From contig CAWCMA010000003.1 of NCBI GenBank assembly GCA_963796565.1, positions 2,454 through 66,453 of the forward strand: DNA of 64,000 bases, in the 5' to 3' direction. How positions within the stretch are numbered: the stretch's first letter is position 1; each line of letters starts with the position of its first letter. This DNA comes from an uncultured delta proteobacterium. Lineage in GTDB: Bacteria > Desulfobacterota > Binatia > Binatales > Binataceae. A program made the translations under genes and the position numbers. Positions 5,831-24,863 of this stretch are shown piece after piece. A model generated the notes under the pieces. It made no database searches. It was not told the DNA's origin and saw only the letters and a program-made list of their open reading frames with translations.

Positions 5831-5956
5831 CTTACGGTATCTTGTTACAGGGCGCTTACATTCCTGGCGGGCCTCGTACTTCTCTTGACAGGCGCGACCC
5901 GAGGGATAAAGGCATCCCTCGGGTCCGCTTATCAATACCCAGACCAGAATTCGTCC

Positions 5957-7635: not shown

Positions 7636-7703
7636 TTGTCCCGCCTCCGATTGTTGGGTTCACCGCCTTCGCGCAATGTTCGCGAGCAATCGCTCACCAA
7701 ACC

Positions 7704-8685: not shown

Positions 8686-8848
8686 CGGCCCGAAGCTTTC
8701 TCTGTCGCGCGAGGATGCCGAATTATGAAGCTGACGTTCTCGACCTACTACTACTCCTACTCCTGCCGCCGCGCGGCGGCGTGACACCTCCGAAACCCAA
8801 CCAGCAACGACGATGAGCGAACCGGCGGGGAACATACAAGCAGCGCGT

Positions 8849-9661
8849 TTAGCGGAGCGGCTCGACCGAGCCGACCGCCTTGATCGCGGTCCGTCGCGCG
8901 TAATTGAGCTGGCGCTCAGGTCCGCCTTTTTTTGAGAGATCGCGAGCATGCAGTATTTCGTCTCTGATTTGTTGTTCCGGAAGGCCTCGGCTCGCTGCGT
9001 GTAAAGCCCACGCCATGTCGGCGCGATGAAGGTCGCCGCTGTACCGAGAGTCCGCGTGAAAATCGGAGAGAGATCGCACTGAGTCGTCCTTCGAGGTCGC
9101 TTCACTCACTGTGCGCGTCGAGCTTTCCGCGCTGGCCCTGCGAGCAAGCGATTTTACTTCCTCGAGAAATTCGCGCGCTGCGGTGTAAGTGCGGCCCTCG
9201 CATTCATGCAAGCGAACGAACGGTGGAAGACCGGTCTGCAGCCGTCTCTTCGGCTTCTGATTCGTGAAGCCCGCAAGTCGGCCGAAGTGGCGCCAATCGG
9301 CGCTCGAGGGATCACCTCCGAAGCGGCGCGCCAGCTCCTTCGCGGCATCGGTACTAAAGGTGCGATCGAAGAGTATCCGTCCGTGGTTTAGCCACACCTG
9401 AAAGTTGCCCGGCGAAGTCTCTATAACGGCGGCTGGCTGAAATCCTGCCTCCGTCATTCGCGGGATCGTTTCAGCGCTGAGATCGTCGACCAGGCTCAAC
9501 GCATGAGTGCCGTGTGGGCGGACGAATATTTGTGCACCCCGCGCATTCTCCCGCCTCAGCCACGCGAGAGCGGCGTCAATCTGATCGGCGCTCCAGCCTT
9601 TTCGGAGCAACATCCGGCCATCCATCCGGAGAACGCCAATTTCGAATAGCTCGCAGCGCAT
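8849..9661 (-). CDS. repB: RepB'-type (IncQ/RSF1010-like) replication primase
   Basis: Blocks 'CELFEIGV', 'IFVRPHGTHALSLVDDLS', 'VIETSPGNFQVWL', 'DPSSADWRHFGRLAGFTNQK' and 'PPFVRLHECEGRTY' align with the RSF1010 RepB' catalytic domain, and a C-terminal helix-bundle part follows. This is from recall, not a database search. The N-terminus may be slightly truncated. Confidence 0.75.
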   Translation of the reverse strand: MRCELFEIGVLRMDGRMLLRKGWSADQIDAALAWLRRENARGAQIFVRPHGTHALSLVDDLSAETIPRMTEAGFQPAAVIETSPGNFQVWLNHGRILFDRTFSTDAAKELARRFGGDPSSADWRHFGRLAGFTNQKPKRRLQTGLPPFVRLHECEGRTYTAAREFLEEVKSLARRASAESSTRTVSEATSKDDSVRSLSDFHADSRYSGDLHRADMAWALHAASRGLPEQQIRDEILHARDLSKKGGPERQLNYARRTAIKAVGSVEPLR

Positions 9662-9827
9662 CGCGCAGAGCTGTTTGCGAACAATCGATCCGTGAAATTG
9701 AAGTGGGCATCAGTTATTGCTTCCGTCGACGCCAGGAACACGAAATCTCCTGCTCAGATTTTGCTGGTCGCTTTACTCATCGCCGTCGTGCTGGTGTCGG
9801 GGCTTTCGTAACGCGCGGTGCCTGGAT

Positions 9828-10976
9828 TCATCGGCGTCGTACTTGGAGCGCGTGATGGCATACCGATGTGCCTCGAACGTCTTTCGGGGCGGGCACACGC
9901 TGGCCGCCGTCAGTGCCGAGATTGCCCAGCCGTTGGGTCTGTCGGCCGAAGTCCATGGCGTTGACCCATCCAGCGCCTTCACTGCTGCTGCCTGCGCCAG
10001 CGTTCCCAAGCTGCGCAACTTTATTGAATCCGGTCTGGAGCGCGCTTGTGATGGGTCGAATCACTGTTTGCGCTATGTATGCGGCTTCAAAAGCATGGCT
10101 AAGAGCAAGGCCGATCGTGCCCCCAGCGATTCCTGCTGCCGTATAAGGGACGGCGATACTCACGACCATAAAGACGATGGCGCCCGCTGCGTAGTTGAGC
10201 ATTGCTGACACGGGCAGACTCCCCGAGCAGACGGTTGTGAAGATCGCGCTTGGTGGCAACCCGTAAGTGGTCCACCATGGAAGCGTCGTTGTAACAGGTT
10301 TGCAAGCTGCTAACAGTGCCGAAGCCCATTGGTTCGCCATCTGCACTCCGATGGCGAGCACGAGGTAGAAGAAAAGGAGTCTGACACCGACGCGGAGGAC
10401 ATAGCCGAAATAGCCCTCTGCTGCAGGGGCGGTGAAACGATTCGCGCCTAAACCTAGGAGAAGCACCCCGCCGCCCACCACCAAGTAGGATTCGATCAGA
10501 GTCAGAAGCAGCATTGCTGCCGTGATGACAAATGACAGAAGGACCACGAATGCGGACACGCTTTGAACGATCGCGAGCTCGATGTCGGTCATCAAACTCG
10601 CGTTTGCTGGAGCATTGAAAATGGTCGTGGAAATTTGGCCACCAATTTGCAGCACAGTCTGTGGGCTAAGAGCCGGCAACCCGGTAATTGCAGCGCCGAT
10701 GCCCGAAAAGCTCTTGAGGACTGCATTCATCCAGGAGAATGCGTTCACGATCATCAGGTAAACAAACCCGCCGCTCAGAATATGTTTAATGAGGCGACCC
10801 AAGAAATGTGAGGCGTCAAGCTGACCCTCAGCTGTGAATTGTATCCACGTTACGAGAATGTCTATCAGCAGGAGCGCAATGAAGAGTTTGAGTGCGTAAG
10901 GTTGGATGGCGGCACTGTATTTGAGACCCGCGCTGTAATATTGCGCTGCTATTGCATCGAAGCCGCTCATGATCAT
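9828..10976 (-). CDS. trbL: P-type conjugative transfer protein TrbL/VirB6
   Basis: Polytopic membrane protein. The N-terminus 'MIMSGFDAIAAQYYSAGLKYSAAIQPYALKLF...' is typical of TrbL, and the C-terminal tail is Gly/Ala-rich. It follows trbJ/trbK. The start was chosen at the internal Met (10976) rather than at the track's upstream start (11144). Confidence 0.85.
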   Translation of the reverse strand: MIMSGFDAIAAQYYSAGLKYSAAIQPYALKLFIALLLIDILVTWIQFTAEGQLDASHFLGRLIKHILSGGFVYLMIVNAFSWMNAVLKSFSGIGAAITGLPALSPQTVLQIGGQISTTIFNAPANASLMTDIELAIVQSVSAFVVLLSFVITAAMLLLTLIESYLVVGGGVLLLGLGANRFTAPAAEGYFGYVLRVGVRLLFFYLVLAIGVQMANQWASALLAACKPVTTTLPWWTTYGLPPSAIFTTVCSGSLPVSAMLNYAAGAIVFMVVSIAVPYTAAGIAGGTIGLALSHAFEAAYIAQTVIRPITSALQTGFNKVAQLGNAGAGSSSEGAGWVNAMDFGRQTQRLGNLGTDGGQRVPAPKDVRGTSVCHHALQVRRR

Positions 10977-10999
10977 GCTCCTCCAAAAGACGAATTGTT

Positions 11000-11188
11000 T
11001 TACGGCTGGGGTGGTGGCGCGCCCGGTGTAGCGTTGAGAAAGTTTGGAAGGCCTGACGGTGGGGGAGCTGTGAAGGCCTGATGATGTTCTTCTTCCGCAA
11101 CCCGTCCCTGATAGAGGTGCCAGAGTCCGTAAAGAACGGCACACACGCCGACGAGCGCGAAGACCATCATCATCCTTCTTGCGTTCAT
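11000..11188 (-). CDS. trbK: Small membrane protein in the TrbK (entry-exclusion) position
   Basis: 62 aa with a signal/TM N-terminus and a Pro-rich tail. Located between trbJ and trbL as in P-type trb operons. Confidence 0.4.
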   Translation of the reverse strand: MNARRMMMVFALVGVCAVLYGLWHLYQGRVAEEEHHQAFTAPPPSGLPNFLNATPGAPPPQP

Positions 11189-11315
11189 TCGAACTCTCCT
11201 TCAGAACACTTCATTTAATTGCTACGGCTGTGGCGGCGGCGAACCGGCGGCCGTCTCTAGAAAGTTCGGAGTGCCCTCAGGAGGGGGCGCGGAGAACAGT
11301 GCTTGCGCCTCCAAA

Positions 11316-11984
11316 CTACTCTGGACCTGATGTGTTGACTTGATTTGCTGCCGCTACGTTCTGCGAATTCATCTCGGCCATGACGAGTTGACGCAACATC
11401 TGAACCTGCTGTACCTGCGCGAGCGCGATTTCGTTGCTGACCTGAACCGCCTGCAGATTTCCTATCGCCGTTTGATTCTTGAGCTCAAGGGTTTGCAGCG
11501 ACGCCTGCTCCGCCTGAAAGTTCTGGGCCTGAGCCTGGGCCGAAGCGAGCGCCCCGTTCAGAGTGTTCAGCGTCATGCCGACGGTCGCCTGCGGACTCTG
11601 AACTCCCGCGGTCGAGGCCGCGTTGAAGCCCGGATAGAGTTGCTGAAACTCCTGCGTCAGCCCCTGAAAGGTGTACGAAAGCCCTTCCTGCTGGTTGATC
11701 AGATTTCCGAGGTTACCGAGCAGGTTCTGGTTGGATTGCCAGACTCCCGCACCACCGCCGGTCGTATTCTTAATCGCGTACTGAAGCTGCTGAGCCAAGT
11801 TGGTAACGGTGGCGGTCTCCTGCTGAAGCTGCTGCAGCTGACGGGCGAACATCTGTGGGTCGAAGACGATCTGAGTGCCGCCTCCAAACTGCGTGTGCGC
11901 CGGCGCTGGCTTTCCGAACAGACAAATCAACGCGGCCACGACCGCAAGGAATTGTGGAGAGCGTTTTGTGCGATTCATTGACAT
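11316..11984 (-). CDS. trbJ: Conjugal transfer protein TrbJ (VirB5-like)
   Basis: Signal peptide followed by a Q/L-rich coiled-coil ('QQLQQETATVTNLAQQLQYAIKNTTGG...'), typical of TrbJ. Positioned after trbE. Confidence 0.8.
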   Translation of the reverse strand: MSMNRTKRSPQFLAVVAALICLFGKPAPAHTQFGGGTQIVFDPQMFARQLQQLQQETATVTNLAQQLQYAIKNTTGGGAGVWQSNQNLLGNLGNLINQQEGLSYTFQGLTQEFQQLYPGFNAASTAGVQSPQATVGMTLNTLNGALASAQAQAQNFQAEQASLQTLELKNQTAIGNLQAVQVSNEIALAQVQQVQMLRQLVMAEMNSQNVAAANQVNTSGPE

Positions 11985-14494
11985 ATCTCCGGTTGATTGA
12001 GCTTCCCGTTGGCATGGAACGAATTCCCGTTCGCTCCGATCAACGCTACGACCCGTGGATCAGATTGTGGGTAGAGCTTCTCGAGGTACTCGGCCCAGTC
12101 CGGCAGTCCACGAATGCGAAGCCATTCAACAGTCCAACGGTCGCCATGCTGCTCGATCATTCGCCGCGCGGAAAGCACGTCGTCCTTCGAGCCGGCGCCT
12201 ATGAAGGCGAGCGCCGCAGGACCAAGCGAGAACTGAAACAGCCGCCGTCCAAGCGGCGAGACGTAATAGTAGTGTCGTTTGGGCGTGGCATCAGCGACAA
12301 TATCGATTTGCCGATCTGAGAGTCCGAACCGTCGGTACATCTCACGGCTCGCGGCATTTTTCGCTTCTGCGTTCGGCAGATAAAGCTTCGTCGGACACGA
12401 CTCCAGAATCACGTCGCGATGAGGCGAATTGGCGATCTCCGCGAGACTTTGGGTCGCCAGCACGACAGCGGCGTTTTTCTTGCGTAGGGTGCGCAGCCAC
12501 TCCTCGACCTTCGCGCCAAAGACGCTATTGGTGAGCATGATCCATGCTTCATCGAGCACGATCAGCGTAGGTCTGCCGTCGAGTCGCTGATCGATGCGAT
12601 GAAAAAGATACGTGGCGACAGGCACGACGACTTTCGGTCCCATCGCCATGAGCGTTTCGAGCTCAAAGGTGACGAAGCGCCCTTCGAGCAGCACGTCGTG
12701 GTCGGCGTCAAGAAAGCGCCCGAGCGGACCGGCGAGTGAGAAGGCATTCAGACCGTCCCGCACCGCATTGTCCTGAACCTGGGTGACGAGATTGCTGATG
12801 GTGCGCTGCTCTGGCGGACCTTCGCCGACAAGTTCAAGCGCCCGCCACAATGCCTTGCGCTGCGCGGGAACCAGTCGAACGCTCTGAAGTTCCAGCCAGT
12901 CTTCGAGGAGACTCTGCAGCTTCATGCGATCGGTTTCGTCGTCGACGCGCGCGAGCGGTTGCAGCGGCACCTCGTCCTCGCCGAGGTCGAGGTGTTGTCC
13001 GCCGAGTGCCTTGGTCAGAACGAATGCCGAGTAACCCTTGTCGAAGAAGAAGACCTGGCCGTCGGGAACTGCGCGGAAGTTTGCCGCGATCGCTCCGAGA
13101 GCGACGCTCTTGCCGCTGCCCGTAGGACCGTAGATGCCGGTGTGACCGGTGTCCCCGACGTGCAGGTTGAGCCGGAACGGCGTGCTGCCGGTCGTCGCGC
13201 CATAACAAAGCGCGGGCGTGTTCTTCGGATAGTAAGGGCACGGATTTATCGCGAGCCCTGGCCAGATACTTGTCAGCGGGAGAATGTCGGCGAGGTTCTG
13301 AGTGTTGACCAGCGGGCGGCGCACATCGTACCAGCCGTGCCCTGGCAGCGAACCGAGCCATGCTTCGACCGCGTTGATCGATTCGATCCTGGGATCGAAG
13401 CCCATGTTCTGGCAGACCTTGAACACGAGCTGCGCGTTCTCATCCGCAACCTCAGCACGGTCCTCCGTGATGATCACTTTTGGAGTGACGTAGCAGTAGC
13501 GGACCGCTCCGCCCTCGGCCTCCATGATCGCCTCGTCAGCGTCGGCAGCCATTTTGAGTGCATGCTGGTTTTGAAAGGCTGCGCCGGCGCCGGAACCGAA
13601 GTGCTCGCTGATGATGCCGCGCAGCCCGAGTCGCTTCTGAAACCAGTTGCGCCGGTAAACGGTCAGTTGGTTAATCGCCGTTCTCGGTCCGACCGGAATC
13701 CCACGAATCGAGTAGCGATAACATATAGGCAGTTCGCTCAGGAACGCGGCCATTTCCGCAAATGAGAAGGGCGGAAAACCAGCCAGAGCGACGACGCGGA
13801 CGTGTCTTCCGCCGACGCGGGGTTTGAATCCTGCGATCAGGTCCTGATTGCCGAGAATGGCATCCAAGTAGGTAGGCGTTCGCGGCACGGCGATCTCGCA
13901 TATTCGCCCGTTTATGCAGCTCGCGAGATGGGAAAGCAGGGCAGGCATTTGAAGCGCGGTCAGCTTCCACACTGGACTGATCGCATCTTCGAACTCGCGG
14001 AGTTTCTGCTTGAACCAGTTGTGTTGTCGCCTCCAGTGGGTATGCTTCGGCGCACCCGAGAGAAACACGCCGGCGATCCGCGTCTGCGCATCACTGGGCG
14101 GACGATAGGTGATCGTCAGAACGCATCTCGTCTCGAAATGCTGACCCTCGGCGGAGTATTGAATCTCGCGCTCTCGGTCGAGCGCCGTGCTGACCGGATC
14201 GGGAAACGTTCGACTTGAATATTCGACGCTCGGATAGCGGAACAGGTCGATGTTGTACTGGAACCCGTCATCGAGACGCGCGAGCGCTCGATTGCCCTGG
14301 GCGCGATGAGCGTCGAGTTCCTCGACGCTCGCCGAGTTGAGGTCAAGACCCGAGCACTCGAAAGCCGACAGAAAGGCGCCATCTTTGAGCGCGATCGTGT
14401 AGTCGTCGACTGGGATTGCGTAGTTAAGCTGATCCGGCAGCCCGAGCAGCTTGTCGCGCTTACGTCTTAAATCCTTGAACTCTTTGAGAAACAT
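11975..14494 (-). CDS. trbE: Conjugal transfer ATPase TrbE/VirB4
   Basis: 839 aa with Walker A 'GPTGSGKSV' and Walker B 'LIVLDEAW'. VirB4-type architecture. Intact. Confidence 0.95.
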   Translation of the reverse strand: MFLKEFKDLRRKRDKLLGLPDQLNYAIPVDDYTIALKDGAFLSAFECSGLDLNSASVEELDAHRAQGNRALARLDDGFQYNIDLFRYPSVEYSSRTFPDPVSTALDREREIQYSAEGQHFETRCVLTITYRPPSDAQTRIAGVFLSGAPKHTHWRRQHNWFKQKLREFEDAISPVWKLTALQMPALLSHLASCINGRICEIAVPRTPTYLDAILGNQDLIAGFKPRVGGRHVRVVALAGFPPFSFAEMAAFLSELPICYRYSIRGIPVGPRTAINQLTVYRRNWFQKRLGLRGIISEHFGSGAGAAFQNQHALKMAADADEAIMEAEGGAVRYCYVTPKVIITEDRAEVADENAQLVFKVCQNMGFDPRIESINAVEAWLGSLPGHGWYDVRRPLVNTQNLADILPLTSIWPGLAINPCPYYPKNTPALCYGATTGSTPFRLNLHVGDTGHTGIYGPTGSGKSVALGAIAANFRAVPDGQVFFFDKGYSAFVLTKALGGQHLDLGEDEVPLQPLARVDDETDRMKLQSLLEDWLELQSVRLVPAQRKALWRALELVGEGPPEQRTISNLVTQVQDNAVRDGLNAFSLAGPLGRFLDADHDVLLEGRFVTFELETLMAMGPKVVVPVATYLFHRIDQRLDGRPTLIVLDEAWIMLTNSVFGAKVEEWLRTLRKKNAAVVLATQSLAEIANSPHRDVILESCPTKLYLPNAEAKNAASREMYRRFGLSDRQIDIVADATPKRHYYYVSPLGRRLFQFSLGPAALAFIGAGSKDDVLSARRMIEQHGDRWTVEWLRIRGLPDWAEYLEKLYPQSDPRVVALIGANGNSFHANGKLNQPEICQ

Positions 14495-14512
14495 TGTTCC
14501 ACCTCTCCACCA

Positions 14513-14884
14513 TTACGCGCGGATCTCCTTTGGTATCGGTACGGACGGCCGGATTCGTGGTGGCGGCGCAGTAACTGAGGCGCGAGCGGGATAGTAGTCC
14601 TGCTGATGCACGTGCCGGACGTAGACCCGGCTGAGCTGGGGATCGAACTTCGCCGCCTGAACCAGCGCCCAATGGCCAACCGTGAGCAGGAACGTTCCCA
14701 TGGCAATCGTGTACCAGTGGAGCCCGCCGCCAAACACCAAAGCGGCGGCTGTGATCCAGTTGGCGATCGCCAGAGGCCGTTCCGCGCCAGCGAGAAGAAT
14801 TGGCTGGGTGAGCGATTGATGAATCGCGCTGACCCGCCGCTCCGCTTCGCCCATCACCCTATCCTCCCTAGAAGAGCGCTCCAC
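14513..14884 (-). CDS. trbD: Conjugal transfer protein TrbD/VirB3
   Basis: '...PILLAGAERPLAIANWITAAALVFGGGLHWYTIAMGTFLLTVGHWALVQAAKFDPQLSRVYVRHVHQQDYYPAR' matches the TrbD pattern (.. RYxxxYPAR). Confidence 0.85.
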   Translation of the reverse strand: MERSSREDRVMGEAERRVSAIHQSLTQPILLAGAERPLAIANWITAAALVFGGGLHWYTIAMGTFLLTVGHWALVQAAKFDPQLSRVYVRHVHQQDYYPARASVTAPPPRIRPSVPIPKEIRA

Positions 14885-15217
14885 CGAGTGGGAATAAGGT
14901 CGTCATCAGCTGTGTTGCGCCCAGAGCGCAGGAGCCGCCGAACGCAAGCGACGACATTTTCCGCACGCCGGTTCCGTGTTCGCTCACTGACCACATGATC
15001 CCGGTGCCGATGATCGCTGCGGTAGTGATCGCGTGAGCGACCGGACCCTGAAGGTCGTTCTGCAGAGTCGTGAGCGGCGCGTCCCACGGCAAGCGCCGCC
15101 TGCGGCGACAGCCGCGAACGCCTTGACTGGCCATACGAATGTGACGACCCCGTATGCATAAGCAATCGACGACGCCCATTTCCTCCACGCACTTTTACTT
15201 TCTTGCAGCCGCTTCAT
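14868..15217 (-). pseudogene. trbC: TrbC/VirB2 pilin gene with a -1 frameshift between signal peptide and pilin core
   Basis: GGAGG RBS then ATG at 15217. '[41 protein letters not shown]' (signal) is in one frame. '[40 protein letters not shown]...SLAFGGSCALGATQLMTTLF' (pilin core) is in the -1 frame. The switch is at ~15091-15102, in a GGCGGCGC run. Confidence 0.7.
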
Positions 15218-15249
15218 TTCACGTACCTCCTTGGTGATCGAATAAAACC

Positions 15250-16239
15250 TCAAGCCGTGATGGCTTCGAGGCCTTCATCCAGCTTCACAGGCGCAAGCGC
15301 GAATCCGTCGCGCGCGTTGTATCCAGCGACGCGAACAACTTCCGTGATCCGTCGTCCCGCGGAACTGCGGACGATGAATACGAGCAGGTTGATGGTTTCG
15401 GCTATGAGTTCCGGTTGCGGTGGCACGCCCGCCTCCTGCACGAGACTGGAGAGCCTCGTCAGCGCAGCTCGCGCGCTATTCGCGTGGATCGTGGTGACTC
15501 CCCCCGGATGGCCGGTATTCCATGCCTTCAGCAAAGCGAGCGCTTCGGCGCCGCGGACCTCACCGATGATGATGCGGTCGGGACGTAGCCGCATCGTCGT
15601 GCGGACCAGGCGTGTCATGTCGGCGCTCTCAGCTGTGTGAAGTTGGACCAGATTGTGAGCGCGACACTGGATTTCGAGCGTATCCTCGATGATGACGTAG
15701 CGTTCGTTCGGGTCGGAGCGCTCGACCATTTCATTGATCATCGCTCCGGCGAGAGTTGTCTTGCCCGAGCCGGTGCCGCCGGCAACGACGACATTCAGAC
15801 GCCGGTCAATTGCGTTGCGCAGAACTTCCGCATGGATTTCGCGCAGGATATCGTCGCGAACGTAGTCGTCGAGTGTGTAAAGCACTTGCGCAGGCTTGCG
15901 CATTACGCAGCAGGGTTTTCTTGCGACTGGTGGAAGCAGGCCTTCGAATCGAATGCCCTCGATCTGCAGCTCGCCCTCCACGATCGGACTGCTCGCGTTG
16001 ACTACCGTTCCGAGTGACGCCGCCACGGTTCCGATGAGGCTCTCCACCTGCGACGAGGCGAGCCGCAGACCGGCTTCGTGCATCCCCTTGCCGTAGGATT
16101 CGAACCAGACGCGCCCGTCCTCATTGACGATGATCTCGGTGATCTGAGGGTCGGCGATCGCCGCCAGAATTTTTGCCCCGAGCTGCCGTCTGAGCAGTTC
16201 GTCCAGGCGACGCTCCTGAAGCTGTTGTGCCGCGATCAT
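15250..16239 (-). CDS. trbB: Conjugal transfer ATPase TrbB/VirB11
   Basis: Walker A '[12 protein letters not shown]'. VirB11/GspE-like secretion ATPase. Confidence 0.95.
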
Positions 16240-16679
16240 GCGGACTCTCCGTTGCGGCCGGCACCGCTTTTTTGCGCTGGCATTGGCTCTTCCATCCGTT
16301 TCAGCGTTTCCTCCACTTCGGCTCGCAACCCGCGATGGCGCCGCTGGCCTGAAGCGAGCGCCTGTTTGCGTTGCGCTTCGGGTATTTCGGGCAAATGGCT
16401 CAGCATGCTCAGAGCGAACTGATCGACCATCGCAAGCAGGGTAGTGAGTTGGTGAGCGAGCGGTTTCAGGGTTTCCGCCATGGAAGAGCGGCTCGCCTGA
16501 ATGATTCGTTTCTCAGCCGCTGCGAGAGTTGCGTCCGAGAAGGTCAGCCCGGAGCCACCCTCGGATTGAAAGAGACGCTCCTTCACGTATCGCGACAGGG
16601 TGATGCCGCGCTCATCGGCTTCGTCGCGCAGTCGATGAAATTCCTCTTCACTCAGGTAAGCAGTGAGTTGTCGTCTCAC
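16236..16679 (-). CDS. CopG/ribbon-helix-helix DNA-binding protein (the small regulator found between traG and trbB in Tn4371-type ICEs)
   Basis: 'MRRQLTAYLSEEEFHRLRDEADERGITLSRYVKERLF' is an RHH fold motif. It overlaps the trbB start by 4 nt. Confidence 0.7.
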   Translation of the reverse strand: MRRQLTAYLSEEEFHRLRDEADERGITLSRYVKERLFQSEGGSGLTFSDATLAAAEKRIIQASRSSMAETLKPLAHQLTTLLAMVDQFALSMLSHLPEIPEAQRKQALASGQRRHRGLRAEVEETLKRMEEPMPAQKSGAGRNGESA

Positions 16680-16895
16680 AGTAATCTCTCCTTAACGCCT
16701 TCCTCTTTCGGCGCGTCGGCCGCGTCCTTCCCGTTCTCAACGGCGAATTTCAGAAACGAGAGCTGCTCCGCGGGCGCTGGCTTGACGCGGCGAGGCTTTG
16801 CCGGTGACGACCTGAACGGGCTTCTGGTCAGTCCTGCCGCTCTTGCGGCGCGTACTTCTCCGTGCTGTCCTTCGGTTCCTCGTCATCGTCGTCGG

Positions 16896-18810
16896 CTACC
16901 GGCGGAGCGTATTCGATGCGATCGCTCTTCGGTGGCGGAGCAATCTGCGCAGCCGTTTGAAAGATGGATCGGAGTAGTAGCGAAGTTTCGTCGCTCGAAT
17001 CGCTGGCCGGCCACTGGTGAAGATCAACGCCTCGTTGGAACCCAGCCGCATCGCTTCGTCGGGCGTGATCAGCGGCCTCGCCACTTCCGGCTCCGAGACG
17101 CTCGCACCCGAGCTCGATACGGTCCGATGCGCATGGCGCACTGTGGTTTCCCCGGTCATCTGCGAGAGCAGCCGCGCCGTTTCGATCCGATTCGGAGCGA
17201 ATGCGACGCGCGTATGGCAGTTGGAGGTTATCGCCTCATCGTGCCCGTATGCGGCGTGGATCTGACTCAGATCCTGCGCGATCAGGCACGCTTTGATTCC
17301 GTAGCCGGCGACCAACGACAGGGACTCTGCGAACACGTCGAGCCGCCCGAGACTCGGGAACTCGTCGATCATGAGCAGCAGGCGATGGCGATATCCGGTC
17401 ACCGCTCGGCCGTTTCGAAATTCCAGATGTTCGGTAAGACGATGAAGGATCTGACCCAGCATTAGCCGAATCACCGGCTTGAGGCTGTTCTTGTGTGCGA
17501 GTGGGACCGCGATGTAGAGCGACACGGGCCGTTCGTGATTCATCAGATCTGTAATTCGAAAGTCGGAGACCGCGGTGTTCGCGGCAATGACCGGATCGCG
17601 GTAAAGCTCGAGGAATCCCTTCACCTCCGAGATCACGCCCGAGCGTTCGTTCGGGCTCTTGTCGAGCATGCTGCGCATCGCGCGCGCGATGATCGGATGC
17701 GTCCTGGTCGGAATGCCGCGCGAATCGGTCCAGCCCAGCGAGCCGGATGGATCGTGCTCGGCCCGCATGATCTGCTGCATGGTGTCGTCGATCGGCTGGC
17801 CCGGATCGCACAGGCGCGCTTCCAGTCCGCTGAGAGTCTTGTCCCGTCCGGCATAAAGCTGATCCAGGATCATGCCGGTGAGGAAGGCCGAGCCTTCGCG
17901 CGACCAGTGATCGGGCAGCCCTTTCCCGTCCGGATCGATGATCATTTGCACGATGTTGCGGACATCGCGGATTTCGTTGGGTGTGCCGGAGCCTGACTTC
18001 CGCGAGCGGATTGTAACGAGCGCCGTCGCTGTCGGCTGAGGCGGGTGCGAACTTGAGACAAAGCTGGCCCATTCGTTTCCGAGCTCCGGCCGTGAGCGCC
18101 CAGTTCTCTCCTTTCAGGTCGTGAATCAGGACTGAGTACGGCCAGCTGAGCAGTGTGGGAATCACGATGCCGACGCCCTTGCCGCTCCGCGTTGGCGCGA
18201 AGACCAGGACATGCGCGGGGCCACAATCGCGTATGAATGAAGCTCGTCCCCACTCCCGCCAAACGCCGAGATAGATTCCAGCGCGGCGGGCCCTTGGTCT
18301 CAGAATCCGCAAGCACACACCGATTCCTCGCAGCCATTCGCGTATTGACCTGCGCGCATCGATCAATCGAGCGGCTCTCAGATCACGCGCGGTTGCCCAG
18401 CGCGCGGAACCGTGAAGGTCAGAGACGTTCGCGAACCAACCATGCCGCACCATCGCGATAGCCGCGCAACAAACCGCCGTCACGACCGCCATTGGGTAGA
18501 GCGCCTCGCGAGCGCACTCTTTCCAAAGCGATTGCAGTTGCGGAGCCCAGTACCATCGGGTCCACCAGACAATCCACGACCACGGCGCGTATACTGCTCC
18601 GCCCCTCAGGTGGAAAAGCGGTTGCCCCAGCCACGACGCATGGCGGAGCACGCTCGCCGCGTGCTGTGTTGTCACCGAGTTGATCGCGATGAACGCTCCG
18701 ACCAGTGAAAGCACGGCGCGCCGTTTCGCACGGGCGAGCCTCGCATCCGCTGAGAATCCGGGAATTCGATAGGGACGCTGTTCAGCCATTGCGCTCCCTC
18801 TCCCGTTCAC
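16896..18810 (-). pseudogene. traG: Type IV coupling protein TraG/VirD4 split by a +1 frameshift
   Basis: The N-terminal frame (17236..18810) carries TM helices and Walker A 'VFAPTRSGKGVGIVIPTLL' up to '...ARYNPLAEVRL', then becomes Arg/Pro-rich nonsense. The C-terminal frame (16896..17951) continues 'GTPNEIRDVRNIVQMIIDPDGKGLPDHW...LLLMIDEFPSLG...CLIAQDLSQI'. There is one extra C at ~17986-17991. Confidence 0.85.
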
Positions 18811-19813
18811 GGACCCGATCCATGCCGGAATCGATTGTGCGCTGGCGGCGCGAACGACTCTTGATCACGTCTTTGGAGACTTGGCGCTCACGCAGCTCGC
18901 GTTCATGGTTCTGCGAAAGCTCCCAGCTTCGCTCATCGACGCGCTTGGCAAGTCCTAGCCTTGAAAGAAATTGCAGGCGATCGATCTCTTGTTCAGCTCG
19001 AATCCGGGCTCCCTCGCTGCGCGGTTGGGACTGGTCATACGCGACGAGGCCATTTCCGTCGGCCTTTCTCTGCAACGCGCGGTCGATCTCGGTCCACTGC
19101 TCGCGCCTGACAGCGCGCTCACGCGACCGCAACATCTCGGGCTCCAGCCGCGGACCCAATTCCCGCGTCGCGATCTCCTGGCTCCGGATACGCAGCCCTG
19201 AGCGCAAATACTCGCGGTTGATCTCCAGTGGTCTGCCGTTTTCGCGCACTCCACGAACGAGCAGATGAACATGCGCATCGTCGGTGTTGTGGTGATCGAT
19301 CGCGACCCATTCCAGCTTCGTGTCGAGGTCGCGTTCCATCTGGCCGACCAGCTCGCGAACGTGGTCGCGAAGATTGAGGCGATCGGCATCCTCGGGCGAA
19401 ACGATGAACCGCCACATGAGTTCGTCGCTCTTCTCCCAGTCTCTGACCGTGGCAAGCATGTCGATGTCTTCACGGTCCGCATCGAAGCCCAATCCCTTCG
19501 CCATTTCCTGCTGCGCGCCCGGCCGCGACAAGTAGCGCGCATGGGCAGCCCACGCGCCGCTCCGGCGGTTGCGCGAGAAAGAGGCCTTGACCACGCTGCG
19601 CCGCGCATATGCCGGTGGTTCCGCGATCCGCACTCGCGCCGCGCGCGCGCCGCTTAGACTTCCGCTCGGCTGCTGCCGTCGCAGCCCTTGCCGTATGCCT
19701 ATCCGCCGCAACGCGCGCGCCCACCACGGCACGAGTTTGCGCGGACGCTCCGCATGCTCGTGGCGGAGCTTGATATCGACCTCTTTCTGGCGGAGGAACC
19801 TAGGCCGTTTCAT
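18782..19813 (-). CDS. Relaxase (VirD2-like/DUF3363-type mobilization nuclease), possibly short or truncated
   Basis: 'SVVKASFSRNRRSGAWAAHARYLSRPG...WRFIVSPEDADRL' matches the DUF3363/RlxS-like pattern. The histidine triad 'AIDHHNTDDAHVHLLV' matches relaxase motif III (HxDxxHxH). At 343 aa it is shorter than typical ~600-aa homologues. Confidence 0.75.
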   Translation of the reverse strand: MKRPRFLRQKEVDIKLRHEHAERPRKLVPWWARALRRIGIRQGLRRQQPSGSLSGARAARVRIAEPPAYARRSVVKASFSRNRRSGAWAAHARYLSRPGAQQEMAKGLGFDADREDIDMLATVRDWEKSDELMWRFIVSPEDADRLNLRDHVRELVGQMERDLDTKLEWVAIDHHNTDDAHVHLLVRGVRENGRPLEINREYLRSGLRIRSQEIATRELGPRLEPEMLRSRERAVRREQWTEIDRALQRKADGNGLVAYDQSQPRSEGARIRAEQEIDRLQFLSRLGLAKRVDERSWELSQNHERELRERQVSKDVIKSRSRRQRTIDSGMDRVRERERERNG

Positions 19814-20210
19814 CGCACACCTCGGTCAACGCCTCGCTGAGGGCGAGTACCAGTTTGGTCGGACTCTCCGGCGCCCGCCCGCCGAGCGCTTCGATGATCT
19901 CGCGCAACTGCCCGCTGCTGAGCGTGATCGCGTGCAGATCCTGCGCGCGCCGCCATGACTTCCACGCGCGCTTGCCGGTCGCGCGTTCGTCGAGCTTCTT
20001 CCGCCCGATCGTCGCAACGTGCGCCCGCTGCGCGGGCGTAAGGTCGCCAGCCTCCTGTGCGACGCTGAGCAGGGCGCCCAGCAGAAAGTCGGGCGGCTCC
20101 AGATCGAGGCCTGCCAGCGCGATCAATCCGCCGAGGTTGGCGAGATGATGCACGCGCAGTCCCTGCTCGGGGCTGTGACTGTTGCCATTTCCATTTCCGT
20201 TGCTGTTCAT
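19800..20210 (-). CDS. Hypothetical conjugation-associated protein (136 aa) between traF and the relaxase
   Basis: Starts 'MNSNGNGNGNSHSPEQ...' 4 nt after the traF stop. No recognisable motif. Its position suggests a relaxosome accessory protein. Confidence 0.4.
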   Translation of the reverse strand: MNSNGNGNGNSHSPEQGLRVHHLANLGGLIALAGLDLEPPDFLLGALLSVAQEAGDLTPAQRAHVATIGRKKLDERATGKRAWKSWRRAQDLHAITLSSGQLREIIEALGGRAPESPTKLVLALSEALTEVCDETA

Positions 20211-20215
20211 GGCAT

Positions 20216-20777
20216 TCACCACGTCACGACCGGTTCGATTTCTCCGCGAACGTTCGCGAGCGGAATCGGACCGAAGTAGCGCGAGTCCCAGCTCCGGCGA
20301 TCGTTGAAGCCGAACAGCCACACCTGGCCGGCTGCCGACTCGATGGCTGCCCCACGCGACATGCGGAAGCGGGCGGTGTGCGCTGTCATGGGTGGCAACT
20401 CTGCTGCGCGCGAACCGTGCGCCGTTCACCGCAACCCATCCGGGTTCGATCTCGACGCTATCGCCGGGGAGAGCACCCACGATCTTGCCCACCGGCTCCG
20501 CGTTGCCGGCGCACGCGCCAGTGCGCAGATAGCCGCGCGCGAGACCCTCCTGGGCGATCGGGATCGGCAGGCATGCCGCAACCAATTCGCCACGCTCAAT
20601 CCCGTGAGCGACGACACGATAGACGCCTGCCGGTGCGGCGCTGTCCGTGTTCGAGATCAGTACGCCGAGTGCATTGCCGACTGCGATTAAGAGCGCTGCT
20701 GGCGATCGCAATTCCGGCCATCGCTCCAATGGGTCCGCGAGCGCCTTCCAATTGTTGAAAATGAATGCGCTGGGCAA
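20216..20777 (-). pseudogene. traF: TraF-type S26 signal peptidase (pilin maturation) with an internal frameshift
   Basis: N-terminal frame: '...ACLPIPIAQEGLARGYLRTGACAGNAEPVGKIVGALPGDSVEIEPGWVAVNG...VATHDSAHRPLP'. The peptidase box E 'SWDSRYFGPIPLANVRGEIEPVVTW*' lies in a different frame (60-aa ORF 20216..20398). The frame switch is at ~20340-20380. Confidence 0.75.
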
Positions 20778-21001
20778 GCGATCCGGCGGGGTTTTCTGCC
20801 GTGCTGTACAGTGTGCTGATCATGACTGCCTCCGAGGGGGAAAGGCCGCGAGTTCGTTGAGCAATCCGCCGAAAATGCCGCACCGTACCGCAGGTCCTTT
20901 ATCTTGCTCTACGAACGACCGGCCTTCCCCCCTCTCCAACGCACCCTTCCAATCCACTCCTTCCGCGCGCCGCAAAGCGGCTGAGAAATTCCTGAAAATC
21001 C

Positions 21002-21247
21002 TCACTGCAGTTTCTCCGTCGAAGGTTCGGTTACGCGGCCATTCAGTTTCCGGCCCGGACGTGGGGCACCTTCGAGCTCGGCCTTGATCTGCTTGCAGAG
21101 CCGCCACATCGCCGCCGTGATCGTCTCGCCAAGATCGAAGCCCGCATCTTCGGCCCGACTGCGCAGTTGCTCGATCTCACGCTTGAGCGCCGCAGGCAGC
21201 TTGAACGTGATCGCTTCGCTTTCCTGTTTGCGCTTGAGAACTCCCAT
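21002..21247 (-). CDS. Ribbon-helix-helix (Arc/MetJ-like) DNA-binding protein
   Basis: 81 aa. 'ITFKLPAALKREIEQLRSRAED' is a β-strand plus helix RHH signature. It lies between trbI and traF, a possible relaxosome/oriT accessory position. Confidence 0.5.
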   Translation of the reverse strand: MGVLKRKQESEAITFKLPAALKREIEQLRSRAEDAGFDLGETITAAMWRLCKQIKAELEGAPRPGRKLNGRVTEPSTEKLQ

Positions 21248-21280
21248 TACATTTCTCCTTGCGTAATTGGATTGTGGAAT

Positions 21281-22413
21281 TCACTTCCCGTATGGGCCGG
21301 GGAATACGAGGTCCTGGGTGATCATCACGTCGAACTGGTAGCCCGGCCGGATTTCAATCGTCGGTGGACGATTTAATCCCTGTCCCATCATTTGCTGACC
21401 CAGTGCCCCGAATTGTCCCGAGGCGGCTGAACCGGCGGTCTGACTCGCCATCGCCCATTGATTCGGTTGGTAGTAACCGTACGGTCCGTAGGAGGCGCCG
21501 CCTCCAAAAGTCGCCATCTGTCCGACGGCCTGGCCTGCGCTGATCAGGCTCATAACGGCGGCGGTTCCGAACGTTGCGAGATAGTGGTGGTCAATCTGAT
21601 CGGAGAAGCCGGCGTAGCCACTCTGATCGGCGCCCGGCATCATCGGCAGATTCATGCTCGAGGTGTTCGGGAAGATGAGCCGCTGCCACGCGATCTGAAC
21701 GCGCTGCTGACCGTATGAAGATGCGTTCTGGTAGGCGCCGATGAGGCGGCTGCCTTGCGGGATGAGAATCGATCTGCCGGTCGCGCTGTCGAGGACGTTC
21801 TGGCTGACCTGCGCGAGAATCGGTCCGGGCAGATCTGAGTTAATGCCACTGATCAGAACGGCAGGGAGGATGCTGCCCGCCATCACGGTGTACGGCGAAG
21901 CGGCGGGGTGAACGCTTATCGTCGGGTTGGTCTGATCACCGGAAGTATACGAGTCAGCCTGCTGTCCGTTTGCGCTCGCGATCTCCAGCGTTCCGCCACT
22001 ATGAAACGCCTGCACCATCTCCGGCGATTCGAGCGCCTTCATGTACTTCTCTTCGGCCCATTGCGCATACCGGCTCGGGAGGCTTCGGCGCGCTGGGCTG
22101 AACGGGCGCTTGCGAGATCGGCATAACCGGTTCCGTCGGCATCACGGTTGGTGCCGCATGCGGCTCTGCGCCATGAGCTGCGAGGTCTTCGATCTCGCCT
22201 CGGTCTCGGGCTGCTGAGCCTGGGTCGTCGGCTGATTTCTGGGAAGAGGAAGTTTGACCTATCCCTGAGGACTGGACGCCGAGTGCAAGCGCCACTCCGC
22301 CGAGCATCGCAATCGCCACGAAAACCACGCCGAGAAGGCGATTGAAACGGCCGCCGCCAAGATGCTCCTGATTCCTGCTCTTCTTGCTCCTGAATCACGT
22401 CTGCGGTTGCCAT
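21281..22413 (-). pseudogene. trbI: TrbI/VirB10 with two frameshifts (three frames)
   Basis: ATG at 22413, 5 nt after the trbG stop, gives 'MATADVIQEQEEQESGAS'. The TM segment 'GGGRFNRLLGVVFVAIAMLGGVALALGV...PKPPEP' is in a second frame (shift at ~22350-22365). 'YAQWAEEKYMKALESPEM...IRPGYQFDVMITQDLVFPGPYGK*' (VirB10 C-terminal domain) is in a third frame (shift at ~22062-22075, extra G in a CCGG run). Confidence 0.8.
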
Positions 22414-22418
22414 GGCCG

Positions 22419-23366
22419 TTACCTCGTTCCTCCTGCGTAGGAGATAGTCACGCGGTCCTGATCGCGGCCCACGCCGGCGACCAGGATCGCATCGCTGAAG
22501 AGCCGATCGACGACGTAGTAGTTGCCTTTGACGCGGTAGTTCACCATCTGGGTTCCGCTGCCGGCATTGATGAGCAGAGCGGGAGCTTCGCTCGACTTCA
22601 TTCCGGCAGGCATCTGGACATAGACGTGAGAACCGTCGTCGAAGGCTCGAACCGGCTTCCACGGAACGTTCGGTCCTGCGACCGTGTAGGCGAAATTGAT
22701 CTGCGCCGGATCTACGGCTGCGACCTTCACGGTGTCGTCGGAATCACCCGGCGGATCGGCCGCTTCCTGCTTGGCCTTCGCTGCGGCGGTGTCGGCATCT
22801 TTCATCGCTGTAGACAGCTCGTCGGGGTAGTAGAACTCCACTTCCTGCATCGCGTGCCCACGCGACCGGAGCACCAGATGGTAAATGTGCTTCGTAGTGT
22901 AAATTGTCAGGTTGGTTTCGATACCCGGGACCTGCGGCTTCACCGCAAGATGAGGAACAGCATTGCGCGGGTCGCCTGAGGCGGCCGGCGTCGCCATCCA
23001 GCGCTCGGTATCTCCCAATGCAACGTCGGTGATCGTCTCGCCCGGCTGCAGCTGAATGTCGGTGGTGCGCAGCGGCGCGCAATCGACGGTCGGCTCCGGT
23101 TCCTGGTTATAGGGATAAAGTGTGTACTCGGCCGTTCGGTAGACGGGCCACTTGCCGTCTTGCTCATGCTCTTTGACTGCACCCTGCACCTCGGACGGCT
23201 GCTGTGCGAGCAGTTGCGCCCCGGTCGGTCGGGGCGGCGCCGCAGTCGGCATCGCGGGAGACTCTGTTACGAGTTTCAGCGGCGGTGGTGCGGGCGGTTG
23301 TTGGTGACTCGCGCACGCACTGAATAAAAGTGCGAGCGTCAAGGTTCCTGTTCCAATATATTTCAT
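22419..23366 (-). CDS. trbG: Conjugal transfer protein TrbG/VirB9 (lipoprotein)
   Basis: Lipoprotein signal 'LTLALLFSAC' and VirB9-like β-rich body. It sits between trbF and trbI. Confidence 0.9.
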   Translation of the reverse strand: MKYIGTGTLTLALLFSACASHQQPPAPPPLKLVTESPAMPTAAPPRPTGAQLLAQQPSEVQGAVKEHEQDGKWPVYRTAEYTLYPYNQEPEPTVDCAPLRTTDIQLQPGETITDVALGDTERWMATPAASGDPRNAVPHLAVKPQVPGIETNLTIYTTKHIYHLVLRSRGHAMQEVEFYYPDELSTAMKDADTAAAKAKQEAADPPGDSDDTVKVAAVDPAQINFAYTVAGPNVPWKPVRAFDDGSHVYVQMPAGMKSSEAPALLINAGSGTQMVNYRVKGNYYVVDRLFSDAILVAGVGRDQDRVTISYAGGTR

Positions 23367-23390
23367 CGCATATCCTTCCTTCCGGACTGG

Positions 23391-24068
23391 CTATCCCTGC
23401 TGCTCGGTCCAGCTGATCTGCGTCACGTAAAAGCCGAGCGGATTGCTGATGATCGCGTCGTCGGAGTTTGGCGGGACTATCTGTGTCTGGAGTACGGCCT
23501 CCCAATGTGTGGGCGCTCCAATCACAACTCCGTTCAGATCGCGCTTTTGTTCCGACCAACGTACCTGGTAGCTGCTGGGCGAGAGCTGAAGAATCGAATC
23601 GATTTGGATCGAGACGGTCTGCTTCTCTGCAAGCTTGAAAGGGTTGTGAGTGAAACTGTCGGAGTGATAGTAGGCGTCGAGGAATCTGTCCGCAGCTCCG
23701 CGCGCATGCGCGAGCATCGAATCGAGCATCTGGTGTTCGACTTGGGGATCGCTGGTGACCGAGCGCGCATCTCGGATGAACGCCGCGACCTCATAGCGCT
23801 GCACTCGCGCAGCTACGTCGGGAACGGACGTCGGATTGAGAGGCTGCGGAACAGTGAGCGCGTAACCGAGTTTGTCGACTTCAACGACGTACGGAATGTA
23901 GCGGCTTCGGCTGATCAGCCAGACCATGCCGCTGGCGAGAATCAGCGAGAGCAGAAGCAGGCCGCAAGCCGCTACCTGCCAGTTGCGTTTGCCGAGAACG
24001 AGATCGGCGTATCGCTCATCCCACTCTCGACGCGCTTCGACGTAGAGATTCGCACCCATCGCGCGCAC
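23391..24068 (-). CDS. trbF: Conjugal transfer protein TrbF/VirB8
   Basis: N-terminal cytoplasmic segment, single TM 'VAACGLLLLSLILASGMVWLI', and a VirB8-like periplasmic domain. First gene of the trbFGI block. Confidence 0.85.
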   Translation of the reverse strand: MRAMGANLYVEARREWDERYADLVLGKRNWQVAACGLLLLSLILASGMVWLISRSRYIPYVVEVDKLGYALTVPQPLNPTSVPDVAARVQRYEVAAFIRDARSVTSDPQVEHQMLDSMLAHARGAADRFLDAYYHSDSFTHNPFKLAEKQTVSIQIDSILQLSPSSYQVRWSEQKRDLNGVVIGAPTHWEAVLQTQIVPPNSDDAIISNPLGFYVTQISWTEQQG

Positions 24069-24254
24069 ACTCCTGATCGCCGCTCGCTCTATAGCGTCGG
24101 TTTAGTGTCCGAGAATTGTCCGACTTCTGTCCGTGAACTGATCCCAACAGGCTCCAAAAGGAACCAAGATGAAGGGATGAAATGGCTTGATTTTGTTGGA
24201 CTATGTAGAGTCGAATCGGGGCGGGTTGCGAGCAGATTCAGTCTTTTAATCAGA

Positions 24255-24284
24255 GGGTCCTGGGTTCAAGTCCCAGACGGCTCA
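24255..24284 (+). other. 3'-terminal tRNA gene fragment (T-arm plus acceptor 3' strand); probable att-site scar of the integrated element
   Basis: 'CTGGG-TTCAAGT-CCCAG-ACGGCTC-A' is a perfect 5-bp T-stem with a TΨC-type loop, then a 7-nt acceptor strand and a discriminator. No matching 5' acceptor strand, D-arm or anticodon arm can be folded from the ~75 nt upstream, so this is a fragment and not a gene. It lies 190 bp from trbF at the edge of the conjugative block, followed by AT-rich DNA. Confidence 0.5.
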
Positions 24285-24863
24285 CTCAAAACCCTCAGAA
24301 GCATTGAATCTCTTCTAGGCCCAACAAAGGTCAAGAGCTGTTGAGTCTGTTGATATAGACACAAAATAGACCTTTTGCTCGAGCTGGAAGGAGGCTGACC
24401 CCGGCACCGGAATGAAGACCCTGGTAATTCCTTTGGCTTGGAACCGCCACGCGCCCTGAAGGGCGCTCGCAGGCTGAACCTGAGCGCAGTACGGCGCAAA
24501 CGTAGCCTCCAGGAAAATCAGTACAAGGAAGCGCCGGAGGAGCAGACCTCAGACGCGCTCTCTCTGCCTCGCTGACATGGCCCGATCTATCGGTCTGTAT
24601 CAGGCGCTCGCACGCGATGTACTGTCGGCGTCCTGCCGAGCCCGTTTCCAGCATCATATCAGAGGCAAAATTCCAGTCGAATCAATCAAAAATACAAAAT
24701 TTATAATACAATCTATGGCTATTTGACTCTAGCAGTGATTATCTGTAGCTTTCCTTATCGAAAATCACGTGATAATCGTTGCGATGGCTTTGATCATGCT
24801 GGCAGGCATCCGAAAATCTGAGCAAGGACATCTCATTACACCATAGGGCGAGGGAAAAAAACA

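Follow-up and report, generated by a model that had tools for sequence, protein, structure and literature searches.

The 64,000-nucleotide stretch of DNA analysed here (the window), from an uncultured delta proteobacterium of the Binatia lineage, raises the question of why the transfer genes of one conjugative island are broken by a series of small frameshifts when most of the genes around it are intact. The element may be a decaying one, or the breaks may have arisen when the sequence was assembled. We consider it probable that the frameshifts are long-read metagenome assembly-consensus errors, confined to a widely shared mobile element.

The island is of the P type and occupies approximately 8.84-24.29 kb of the window (Table 1). 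Using blastn, we found copies of it in at least ten other metagenome assemblies at 91-93% nucleotide identity and with different flanks, and the family as a whole comprises many variants, 80-93% identical, from soil metagenomes and in varied genomic contexts. Pfam searches recovered VirB8, CagX, TrbI, VirB3, T2SSE and TrbL domains, and the island encodes VirB4-type (TrbE) and VirB11-type (TrbB) ATPases, the VirB3/B6/B8/B9/B10 core proteins, both a coupling protein (TraG/VirD4) and a relaxase, and the TrbC pilin together with TraF, an S26 maturation peptidase. TrbE is 95% identical to its orthologue in the copy L002, which has the VirB4_TrbE_N and P-loop_TraG domains, the L005 orthologues exceed the NCBIfam cut-offs for TraF_Ti (TIGR02771, 104.6 against 100.25) and TrbL_P (TIGR02783), and the PF04956 TrbC domain was matched in relatives. 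The genes (trbB, C, D, E, J, L, F, G and I, and those for the TraF peptidase, TraG, the relaxase and TraD) are those of the IncP (RP4) and Ti-plasmid systems, but their order is unusual, trbF-G-I being placed at the probable attachment-site end and followed downstream by traF-traD-relaxase-traG-trbB...trbL-repB. Another difference is that the relaxase is short (344 aa) and has an RlxS-like NCBIfam score of 192 bits, far under the 850-bit cut-off, and the hosts of these islands appear to be Binatia-type soil MAGs. P-type conjugation systems are also carried by integrative and conjugative elements (ICEs) such as those of the Tn4371 family; we found no integrase in the window, where none of the ORFs tested had an integrase domain. 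At its right end, a tRNA-3'-like fragment common to the window island and L001 is probably the attachment-site end, because similarity to L001 and L015 breaks off exactly at it. Neither ARAGORN nor Rfam found a tRNA gene at this fragment, no complete tRNA target was found in the window, and no direct repeat of at least 13 nt was found joining the two ends of the island. Similarity to relatives stops at 8838, just past repB, next to a low-GC stretch without coding signal.

Table 1. Features of the window, with the frameshifts found in each gene and the product obtained after correction.
Feature	Coordinates	Strand	State and evidence
Hybrid sensor histidine kinase, chromosomal	183..3849	-	+1 frameshift at 3459-3463; corrected 1221 aa
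Conserved part of P-type (Trb/IncP/Ti-like) conjugative island	8839..24291	-	blastn of relatives against window; Pfam and NCBIfam matches
RepB-type primase gene	8849..9661	-	intact
trbL (VirB6-like)	9754..10970	-	-1 at 9861; corrected 405 aa, relatives 404 aa
trbJ	11222..11984	-	+1 at ~11332 near C-terminus; corrected 253 aa, relatives 249 aa
trbE	11975-14494	-	intact, 839 aa
trbD	14513-14854	-	intact
trbC (pilin)	14868..15217	-	-1 at 15092; one base restored gives 116 aa
Intergenic 1-bp insertion, trbB/trbC	15244..15247	-	TTT to TTTT; private to window
trbB	15250-16239	-	intact
orf147	16236-16679	-	intact
traG (VirD4 coupling protein)	16676..18789	-	+1 at 17987, -1 at 16951, +1 at 16832, +1 at 16795; corrected 703 aa
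RlxS/MobA-like relaxase	18782-19813	-	intact; PF03432 match
traD	19800-20210	-	intact
traF (S26 pilin-processing peptidase)	20216..20823	-	+1 at 20699, +1 at 20336; both deleted gives 201 aa
trbI (VirB10-like)	21281..22413	-	+1 at 22371, +1 at 22077-22079; both deleted gives exactly 376 aa
trbG (CagX/VirB9)	22419-23366	-	intact; Pfam, tblastn
trbF (VirB8)	23391-24068	-	intact; Pfam, tblastn
tRNA 3'-end-like fragment GGTTCAAGTCCCAGACGGCTCAC	24263..24285	+	exact end of similarity to L001 and L015

An earlier note, made from the letters of the DNA alone, had listed at least five frameshifts. All five are present within a few bases of the places it gave, and when nine sequences were aligned, every one of the five proved to be a 1-bp indel that only the window has; tblastn with intact orthologues put the frame switches at 15092 in TrbC, 17986/17987 in TraG, ~20336 in TraF, and 22371 and 22077-22079 in TrbI. 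As a count, five was too low, as there are further indels in TraF (20699), TraG (16951, 16832 and 16795), TrbJ (~11332), TrbL (9861) and an intergenic region (~15247), those in TrbJ and TrbL lying beyond the region that the note had covered. This gives 12 coding frameshifts in six genes (two each in TrbI and TraF, four in TraG, and one each in TrbC, TrbJ and TrbL) and one intergenic indel, spanning 9.86-22.37 kb and disrupting essential transfer genes for the coupling protein, the pilin, its peptidase, VirB10, VirB6 and TrbJ. The breaks had been placed in short G/C runs, which is correct for 22079 (CC to CCC), 20336 (G to GG; GTCGGCAG in the window against GTC-GCAG or GTC-GGAG in relatives) and 17987 (CCG to CCGG) only; at 22371 a T is inserted in GGAA|CAGG, and at 15092 a C is missing from GCTCTGCC, both outside such runs. 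The PF02534, PF12696 and PF10412 domains of TraG were matched across two frames, PF02534 being split over two overlapping ORFs (positions 2-122 and 134-452). Single-base edits, which had been proposed as a check, restored the proteins exactly, giving TrbC of 116, TrbI of 376, TraF of 201, TraG of 703 (698-702 in relatives), TrbJ of 253 and TrbL of 405 aa, with no internal stops.

The indels are strongly clustered, with 13 of the 14 detected falling in the island, which makes up 24% of the window (P = 1e-7), and the same concentration was seen with one unbiased codon-usage detector (7/8, P = 3e-4). Their density is about 1 per kb in the island, compared to roughly 1 per 45 kb in the chromosome. 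Uniform sequencing error, already argued against in the earlier note, does not account for this pattern: at the island rate, finding no more than one indel in the four longest flanking genes would have a probability of 3e-5. The note's further statement that the other long genes are intact holds for the other flanking genes tested, which have full-length Pfam domains, but not for the chromosomal histidine kinase. Its 1091-aa ORF (183-3458) is what a +1 frameshift has left of a ~1221-aa gene, and homologues read directly through the 3459-3463 junction; this lone frameshift fits a low background error rate.

Comparison with orthologous elements ties these indels to the individual assembly. None of the window indel states occurs in the 17-28 relatives that cover each main site, and the element is essentially unbroken in ~18 assemblies (JGI, Logan, MEGAHIT and NCBI records). 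Across 12.7 kb of aligned sequence, L001 had 22 private indels with a length that is not a multiple of three, the window 12 and L002 4, compared to 0-1 in each of six copies from MEGAHIT, Logan and JGI; L001 and L002 are ENA ERZ250395xx records named 'contig_N'. In a tblastn count, the window and three 'contig_N' assemblies (L001, L002 and L015) together showed 23 frame switches over 17.2k aa, against 5 over 61.7k aa in a further 18 loci. The private indels of the 'contig_N' assemblies sit at different sites in each, and TraG clusters contain proteins of 233-533 aa on long ENA contigs against 698-702 aa for JGI and Logan. This naming is that of the Microflora Danica project, whose assemblies are Nanopore-only, made with Flye and polished with one round of Medaka (PMC12313526), and residual frameshift-causing indels are a known trait of Nanopore-only Flye and Medaka assemblies (PMC9262707). 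We infer that the window, too, is the product of a Nanopore/Flye-type assembly and that its indels were caused by mixed reads.

The inserted bases themselves point to mixing. We asked how often an inserted base and its neighbour are the two alleles seen at that column among relatives, the alleles being taken from relatives in other samples and not from the window's own. This was the case for 5/8 insertions in the window (P = 1.5e-3), 9/18 in L001 (P = 1.7e-4) and 2/3 in L002, against a simulated null of 0.13 (pooled 16/29, P = 8e-8). A more conservative re-test with a tenth sequence gave 4/7 for the window (null 0.19, P = 0.028), and the signal in the window by itself is moderate. At three of the eight insertions, and at one deletion at least (15092), no polymorphism was seen among the sampled relatives. 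In a non-exhaustive look at the literature, we found no earlier description of such a tandem two-allele signature.

These patterns suggest how the errors may have arisen. Reads from at least two variants of the element that occur together would have collapsed into one path, and at substitution differences consensus building or polishing would sometimes have kept both alleles, leaving a 1-bp insertion, and sometimes neither, leaving a 1-bp deletion. Variant mixing in the island next to a single-variant chromosome would then produce the difference in indel density between the two. The nearest relative of the chromosome has 71% protein identity, with no close relative on record, whereas the island has relatives at 91-93% nucleotide identity, so only the island would be expected to attract mixed reads. 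The indels resemble residual errors of Nanopore-only metagenome assemblies (Flye and Medaka), as aggravated by microdiversity, in being single-base, private to an assembly, gene-fragmenting and cured by 1-bp edits. They differ in being concentrated ~30-fold in a single mobile element instead of being distributed along the contig, in lying mostly outside long homopolymers, and in that many of them are insertions of two alleles in tandem, at positions where the element's variants differ. Several indels lie outside homopolymers, the places in which Nanopore errors are classically expected, and this counts against the artefact, as does the fact that very recent real mutations would likewise carry no selection signature.

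The first alternative is the genuine pseudogenisation that the earlier note had favoured, taken as a very recent event in which ~12 real frameshifts have left a dead or domesticated ICE. The disruptions are there in the sequence and in essential transfer genes, as in decaying or domesticated ICEs and prophage-like relics, where several such genes are interrupted in one island among mostly intact neighbours. The window yielded neither an integrase nor a complete tRNA target, and with similarity ending right past repB beside the low-GC non-coding stretch, the element could be a truncated one. Genuine inactivation does occur in the family, as shown by a real-looking 2-bp insertion in TraG in L003/L004 (one short-read copy) and by L015, a divergent copy in another genome that is heavily fragmented and has five in-frame stops. 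Unlike such relics, however, the window copy has no in-frame stops once its frames are corrected and no large deletions, and it bears the mark of purifying selection as strong as that on intact copies. Its dN/dS against relatives is 0.094-0.119 (0.106-0.133 between intact copies), and of its 149 private substitutions 79% fall at codon position 3 and 23% are nonsynonymous, the former share being higher and the latter lower than in any other lineage. We thus found none of the relaxed-selection signs of a decaying ICE, namely a raised dN/dS, an even codon-position spectrum and nonsense codons. At most 32 private substitutions fall at codon positions 1 and 2, and with an assumed indel-to-substitution ratio of ~0.1 this would allow for a few neutral-phase indels but not for 12-13; the eight hits in TraG (four), TrbI (two) and TraF (two) came without accompanying neutral substitutions.

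The indel spectrum points the same way. Real bacterial pseudogenes show a deletional bias, the opposite of what we found, which is 9-10 insertions and 2-3 deletions in the window, all of 1-2 bp and overall about 4:1 (19 and 3 in L001). A spectrum of the kind left by decay, with at least as many deletions as insertions and some larger deletions, is not seen here. In over half of the insertions, two population alleles stand in tandem, so that the indels coincide with population polymorphisms, and similar private indels occur, at other sites, only in 'contig_N' assemblies and hardly at all in the 18 others. We therefore regard pseudogenisation as unlikely and as the less well supported of the readings raised in the earlier note. 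In its sharpest form, a Binatia-type soil bacterium would have silenced its resident P-type element through a burst of ~12 small, mostly +1, mutations in six transfer genes before any other sign of decay appeared. We think it quite doubtful that the indels are real in this way; if they were, one would have to assume either that mutation proceeds unusually at this locus or that transfer is strongly selected against.

The earlier note had also raised strain heterogeneity or low quality limited to the island. As a matter of consensus quality, this fits the private indels, the association with assembly style and the two-allele insertions. Real heterogeneity, in which some cells or variants are truly frameshifted and the consensus mixes broken and intact haplotypes, is a different matter. 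The two-allele insertions do imply at least two variants of the element in the sample, and real inactivating changes are known in the family (L003, possibly L015), but a tandem string of both alleles matches neither haplotype and would therefore be a product of the consensus step and not of one of the variants. As the window indels are also missing from all of the sampled relatives, we find this reading improbable. Expression of the genes by programmed ribosomal frameshifting or transcriptional slippage, which the short C or G runs at some switches (22079, 20336 and 17987) might suggest, can in effect be dismissed, since orthologues lack the sites and all relatives encode the same proteins in a single frame; the twelve sites also share no motif and shift in both the +1 and -1 directions.

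If the frameshifts are consensus errors, as we believe is probable, they should not be annotated as pseudogenes, nor should the element be called "decaying". For long-read MAGs in general, mobile elements common to co-occurring genomes can carry consensus error tens of times above that of the surrounding chromosome, which makes pseudogene counts and inferences of ICE decay unsafe without read checks; the tandem two-allele insertion pattern offers a cheap, read-free warning sign. For the organism itself, the consensus-error reading would mean ordinary biology: its element would probably be intact and functional, one copy of a P-type conjugative element that appears to work and is found widely in soil metagenomes.

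Domain searches placed a set of P-type conjugative genes on the minus strand of the window, and the frameshifts that interrupt six of them are probably artefacts of the assembled consensus. Five frameshifts in four of these genes had been described in an earlier note, and all five are present: in tblastn searches with intact orthologues as queries, the frame in the window changed at 15092 in TrbC, 17986 in TraG, ~20336 in TraF, and 22077-22105 in TrbI, with a further N-terminal shift in TrbI at 22371. Pfam also splits TraG, with positions 2-122 of PF02534 in ORF 17236-18810 and positions 134-452 in ORF 16896-17951. The count of five, however, was too low, as alignment of the window with eight related copies (private indels, see table) and tblastn gave a total of 12 coding frameshifts in six genes, two of them beyond the range 14868-22413 covered by the note. 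An apparent +2 indel at 16883 was rejected, as it joins the neighboring column to form an in-frame 3-bp difference. A one-base edit at each site yields uninterrupted ORFs for TrbC (116 aa), TrbI (376 aa), TraF (201 aa), TraG (703 aa), TrbJ (253 aa), and TrbL (405 aa), while the intact relatives have lengths of 116, 376, 201, 698-702, 249, and 404 aa, respectively; for the first four, a test of single-base correction had been proposed beforehand.

Coordinates of features in the window, and of two features in related copies of the island
Feature	Position	Strand	Remark
Histidine kinase gene (chromosomal, hybrid sensor)	183-3849	-	+1 frameshift at junction 3459-3463
Low-GC stretch (55-58%)	3854-8840		between histidine kinase and repB; no codon-usage coding signal
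ORF	5957-6847	-	signal-peptide-like start; collagen-like GPQGPQGPAGPAGPSG run
P-type conjugative gene set	8.8-24.3 kb	-	Pfam, NCBIfam
Indel -1, trbL	9861		added by tblastn
Private indel +1, trbJ	11332		shift confirmed by tblastn
Private indel -1, trbC	15092
Private indel +1, intergenic	15247
Private indel +1, traG	16795		two-allele insertion
Private indel +1, traG	16832
Private indel -1, traG	16951		on C/T polymorphic column
Private indel +1, traG	17987		two-allele insertion
Private indel +1, traF	20336		two-allele insertion
Private indel +1, traF	20699		two-allele insertion
Private indel +1, trbI	22079		two-allele insertion
Private indel +1, trbI	22371
tRNA-3'-like fragment GGTTCAAGTCCCAGACGGCTCAC	24263-24285	+	in L001: 4199-4221 (-)
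IS110-family transposase gene	41556-42950	+	intact
TonB-dependent receptor gene	42957-45410	+
ORF, glyoxalase/VOC-like	59806-60285	+	from translation; not a domain match
TraG insertion in L003/L004	~11713-11722		2 bp, private; GCA_035279875.1
Island copy in L015	3591-19033		ERZ25039474 contig_6181 (838 kb)

The indels are concentrated in the island. When a codon-usage Viterbi frame path was computed across the entire window, same-strand intragenic frame switches appeared only in the island, plus one outside at ~3472. The island makes up 24% of the window and holds 13 of the 14 detected indels (P=1e-7), or seven of eight when a single unbiased detector is used (P=3e-4). At the island's rate, the probability of finding one indel or fewer across the four longest flanking genes is 3e-5, which upholds the earlier argument against uniform sequencing error. 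For the flanks, Pfam domain completeness and the codon-usage frame path replaced a control by DNA comparison, because the best homologue of the neighboring 1141-aa gene is 71% identical and non-syntenic. Pfam domains are complete in the other flanking genes tested, but the view that all other long genes are intact fails for the "1091-aa" histidine kinase, where the sole frameshift detected beyond the island lies. The segment upstream of this ORF, which in the other frame looks multi-helix and membrane-spanning by eye, matches the N-termini of homologous kinases. These homologues read "...KWFERNWRMVAMAFCLILIAS..." across the point of frame change, where the window has four nucleotides in place of one residue, and a one-base deletion gives a protein of 1221 aa. 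One database homologue of this kinase (P0270) itself seems to be frameshifted from its sequence, as its C-terminal 17 residues match window 1820-1870 in a frame differing from the rest. Two other candidates were rejected: a frameshift chain of overlapping minus-strand ORFs at 58-61.7 kb, in which ORF 59638-60525 shadows an ORF on the plus strand, and a nonsense mutation between the transposase and TonB-dependent receptor ORFs, which are two separate genes lying in frame 6 nt apart.

Among P-type conjugative elements, this one is an ordinary new member whose genes follow an order unusual for such a system. Its att end is occupied by trbF (VirB8), trbG (CagX), and trbI, followed by orf81. Downstream of these come traF (S26 peptidase), traD, a MobA/VirD2-like relaxase, traG (VirD4), orf147, trbB, trbC, trbD, trbE, trbJ, orf64, trbL, and a RepB-type primase, and this order is kept in all fetched copies that cover these genes. 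In an intact orthologue (L005), TraF_Ti and TrbL_P scored above the NCBIfam cut-offs, and IncP-type TraG, TrbI, and TrbJ matched below the cut-off. The similarity of the window to two related copies, L001 and L015, stops at 24290/24291, and just inside this boundary both the window and L001 have a tRNA-3'-like fragment with T-arm and acceptor-like parts, which is the probable att end. Neither ARAGORN nor Rfam called a tRNA at the fragment or elsewhere in the island, and no att direct repeat of at least 13 nt was found between the island ends, the fragment having no matching repeat at the other end. On the left side, no relative matches the island beyond 8838, next to a low-GC stretch with no Pfam or Rfam matches.

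Close homologues of the C-terminal TraG fragment are numerous. The fetched copies come from ENA records named contig_N (L001, L002, and L015; ERZ250394xx-395xx), MEGAHIT k141 contigs and an NCBI 'Candidatus Binatia' MAG (L003 and L004), Logan (L005-L007), JGI (L008), and MEGAHIT (L009), and a metagenome scan added 80 further loci. The nearest copies share 91-93% nucleotide identity with the island, the flanks of these copies are unrelated, and the closest relative of the chromosome has 71% protein identity, all of which marks the island as a mobile element common to many genomes. A megablast search of a plasmid database with the island gave a single 95-bp match in TraG, and thus no annotated close relative there.

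Comparison with orthologous elements, a check proposed in the earlier note, shows that the frameshifts are private to the window: each main site is covered by 17-28 relatives, and none shares its state. Private indels of a length not divisible by three also follow the style of assembly, with 22 in L001, 12 in the window, and four in L002, against zero or one in each of the six MEGAHIT, Logan, and JGI copies. By a conservative tblastn count, there are 23 frame switches per 17.2k aa in the window, L001, L002, and L015, and five per 61.7k aa in 18 other loci, while TraG homologues are 233-533 aa on long ENA contigs versus 698-702 aa in JGI and Logan. The contig_N-named records in the searched collection are Microflora Danica MAGs, as seen on 47-54% paralogues. 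These MAGs are Nanopore-only Flye assemblies with one Medaka round (PMC12313526), and leftover frameshifting indels are a known trait of such data (PMC9262707).

Genuine, very recent decay of the element, the reading favored previously, is unlikely. When the window copy is projected onto the intact reading frames, it has no in-frame stops, and its dN/dS against relatives (0.094-0.119) is like that between intact copies (0.106-0.133). No lineage has private substitutions more constrained than the 149 of the window copy (79% third-position, 23% nonsynonymous), of which at most 32 are at codon positions 1 and 2. If the indel-to-substitution ratio is taken as ~0.1, about a hundred or more neutral substitutions should accompany twelve neutral indels, four of which fall in a single gene. 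The window copy gives no sign of relaxed selection. The excess of insertions over deletions (~4:1 in the window, 6:1 in L001) runs counter to the bias toward deletions seen in real bacterial pseudogenes. Against an artefact, several window indels fall outside homopolymers, and genuine inactivation seems to occur in this family: the short-read copies L003/L004 have a candidate inactivating insertion that splits TraG into 573 + 126 aa. The L015 copy, considered as a possible positive control, is divergent (83% identical) and heavily fragmented (TraF 70 aa, TraG 371 aa, TrbE in pieces) between flanking genes that look intact. Its in-frame stops number five, its insertions and deletions are balanced, and two-allele insertions are few. 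Either true decay or a far poorer consensus could account for this copy, of which no close relative was found.

At five sites, the inserted base and its neighbor are the two alleles that the relatives have in one and the same column. The site 20336 is an example: the window has GTCGGCAG where relatives have GTC-GCAG or GTC-GGAG. Such insertions make up 5/8 in the window, 9/18 in L001, and 2/3 in L002, against a null of 0.13 from simulated random or duplicated insertions (P=1.5e-3 for the window, 1.7e-4 for L001, and 8e-8 pooled). When a tenth, divergent sequence was included, the proportions were 4/7 in the window (null 0.19, P=0.028) and 11/18 in L001 (P=9e-5). Taken by itself, the window gives a moderate signal, which tempers the case for an artefact. 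Both-allele insertions are what would be expected of a consensus drawn from mixed variants. Real mixed haplotypes are quite improbable as the source; a base string with both alleles is neither haplotype. The metagenome scan found no closer haplotype above 93.2% identity. Sliding identity to the relatives is a mosaic, compatible with recombination and chimeric consensus alike. Programmed frameshifting can practically be discounted for shifts that no relative shares.

Privacy, assembly style, indel spectrum, two-allele insertions, and selection thus point to a consensus artefact, and the alternative in the earlier note, variant heterogeneity or a low-quality consensus within the island alone, is better supported than a decaying ICE. 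The frameshifts are then of low biological import, with some practical worth as a caution on pseudogene calling in long-read MAGs.
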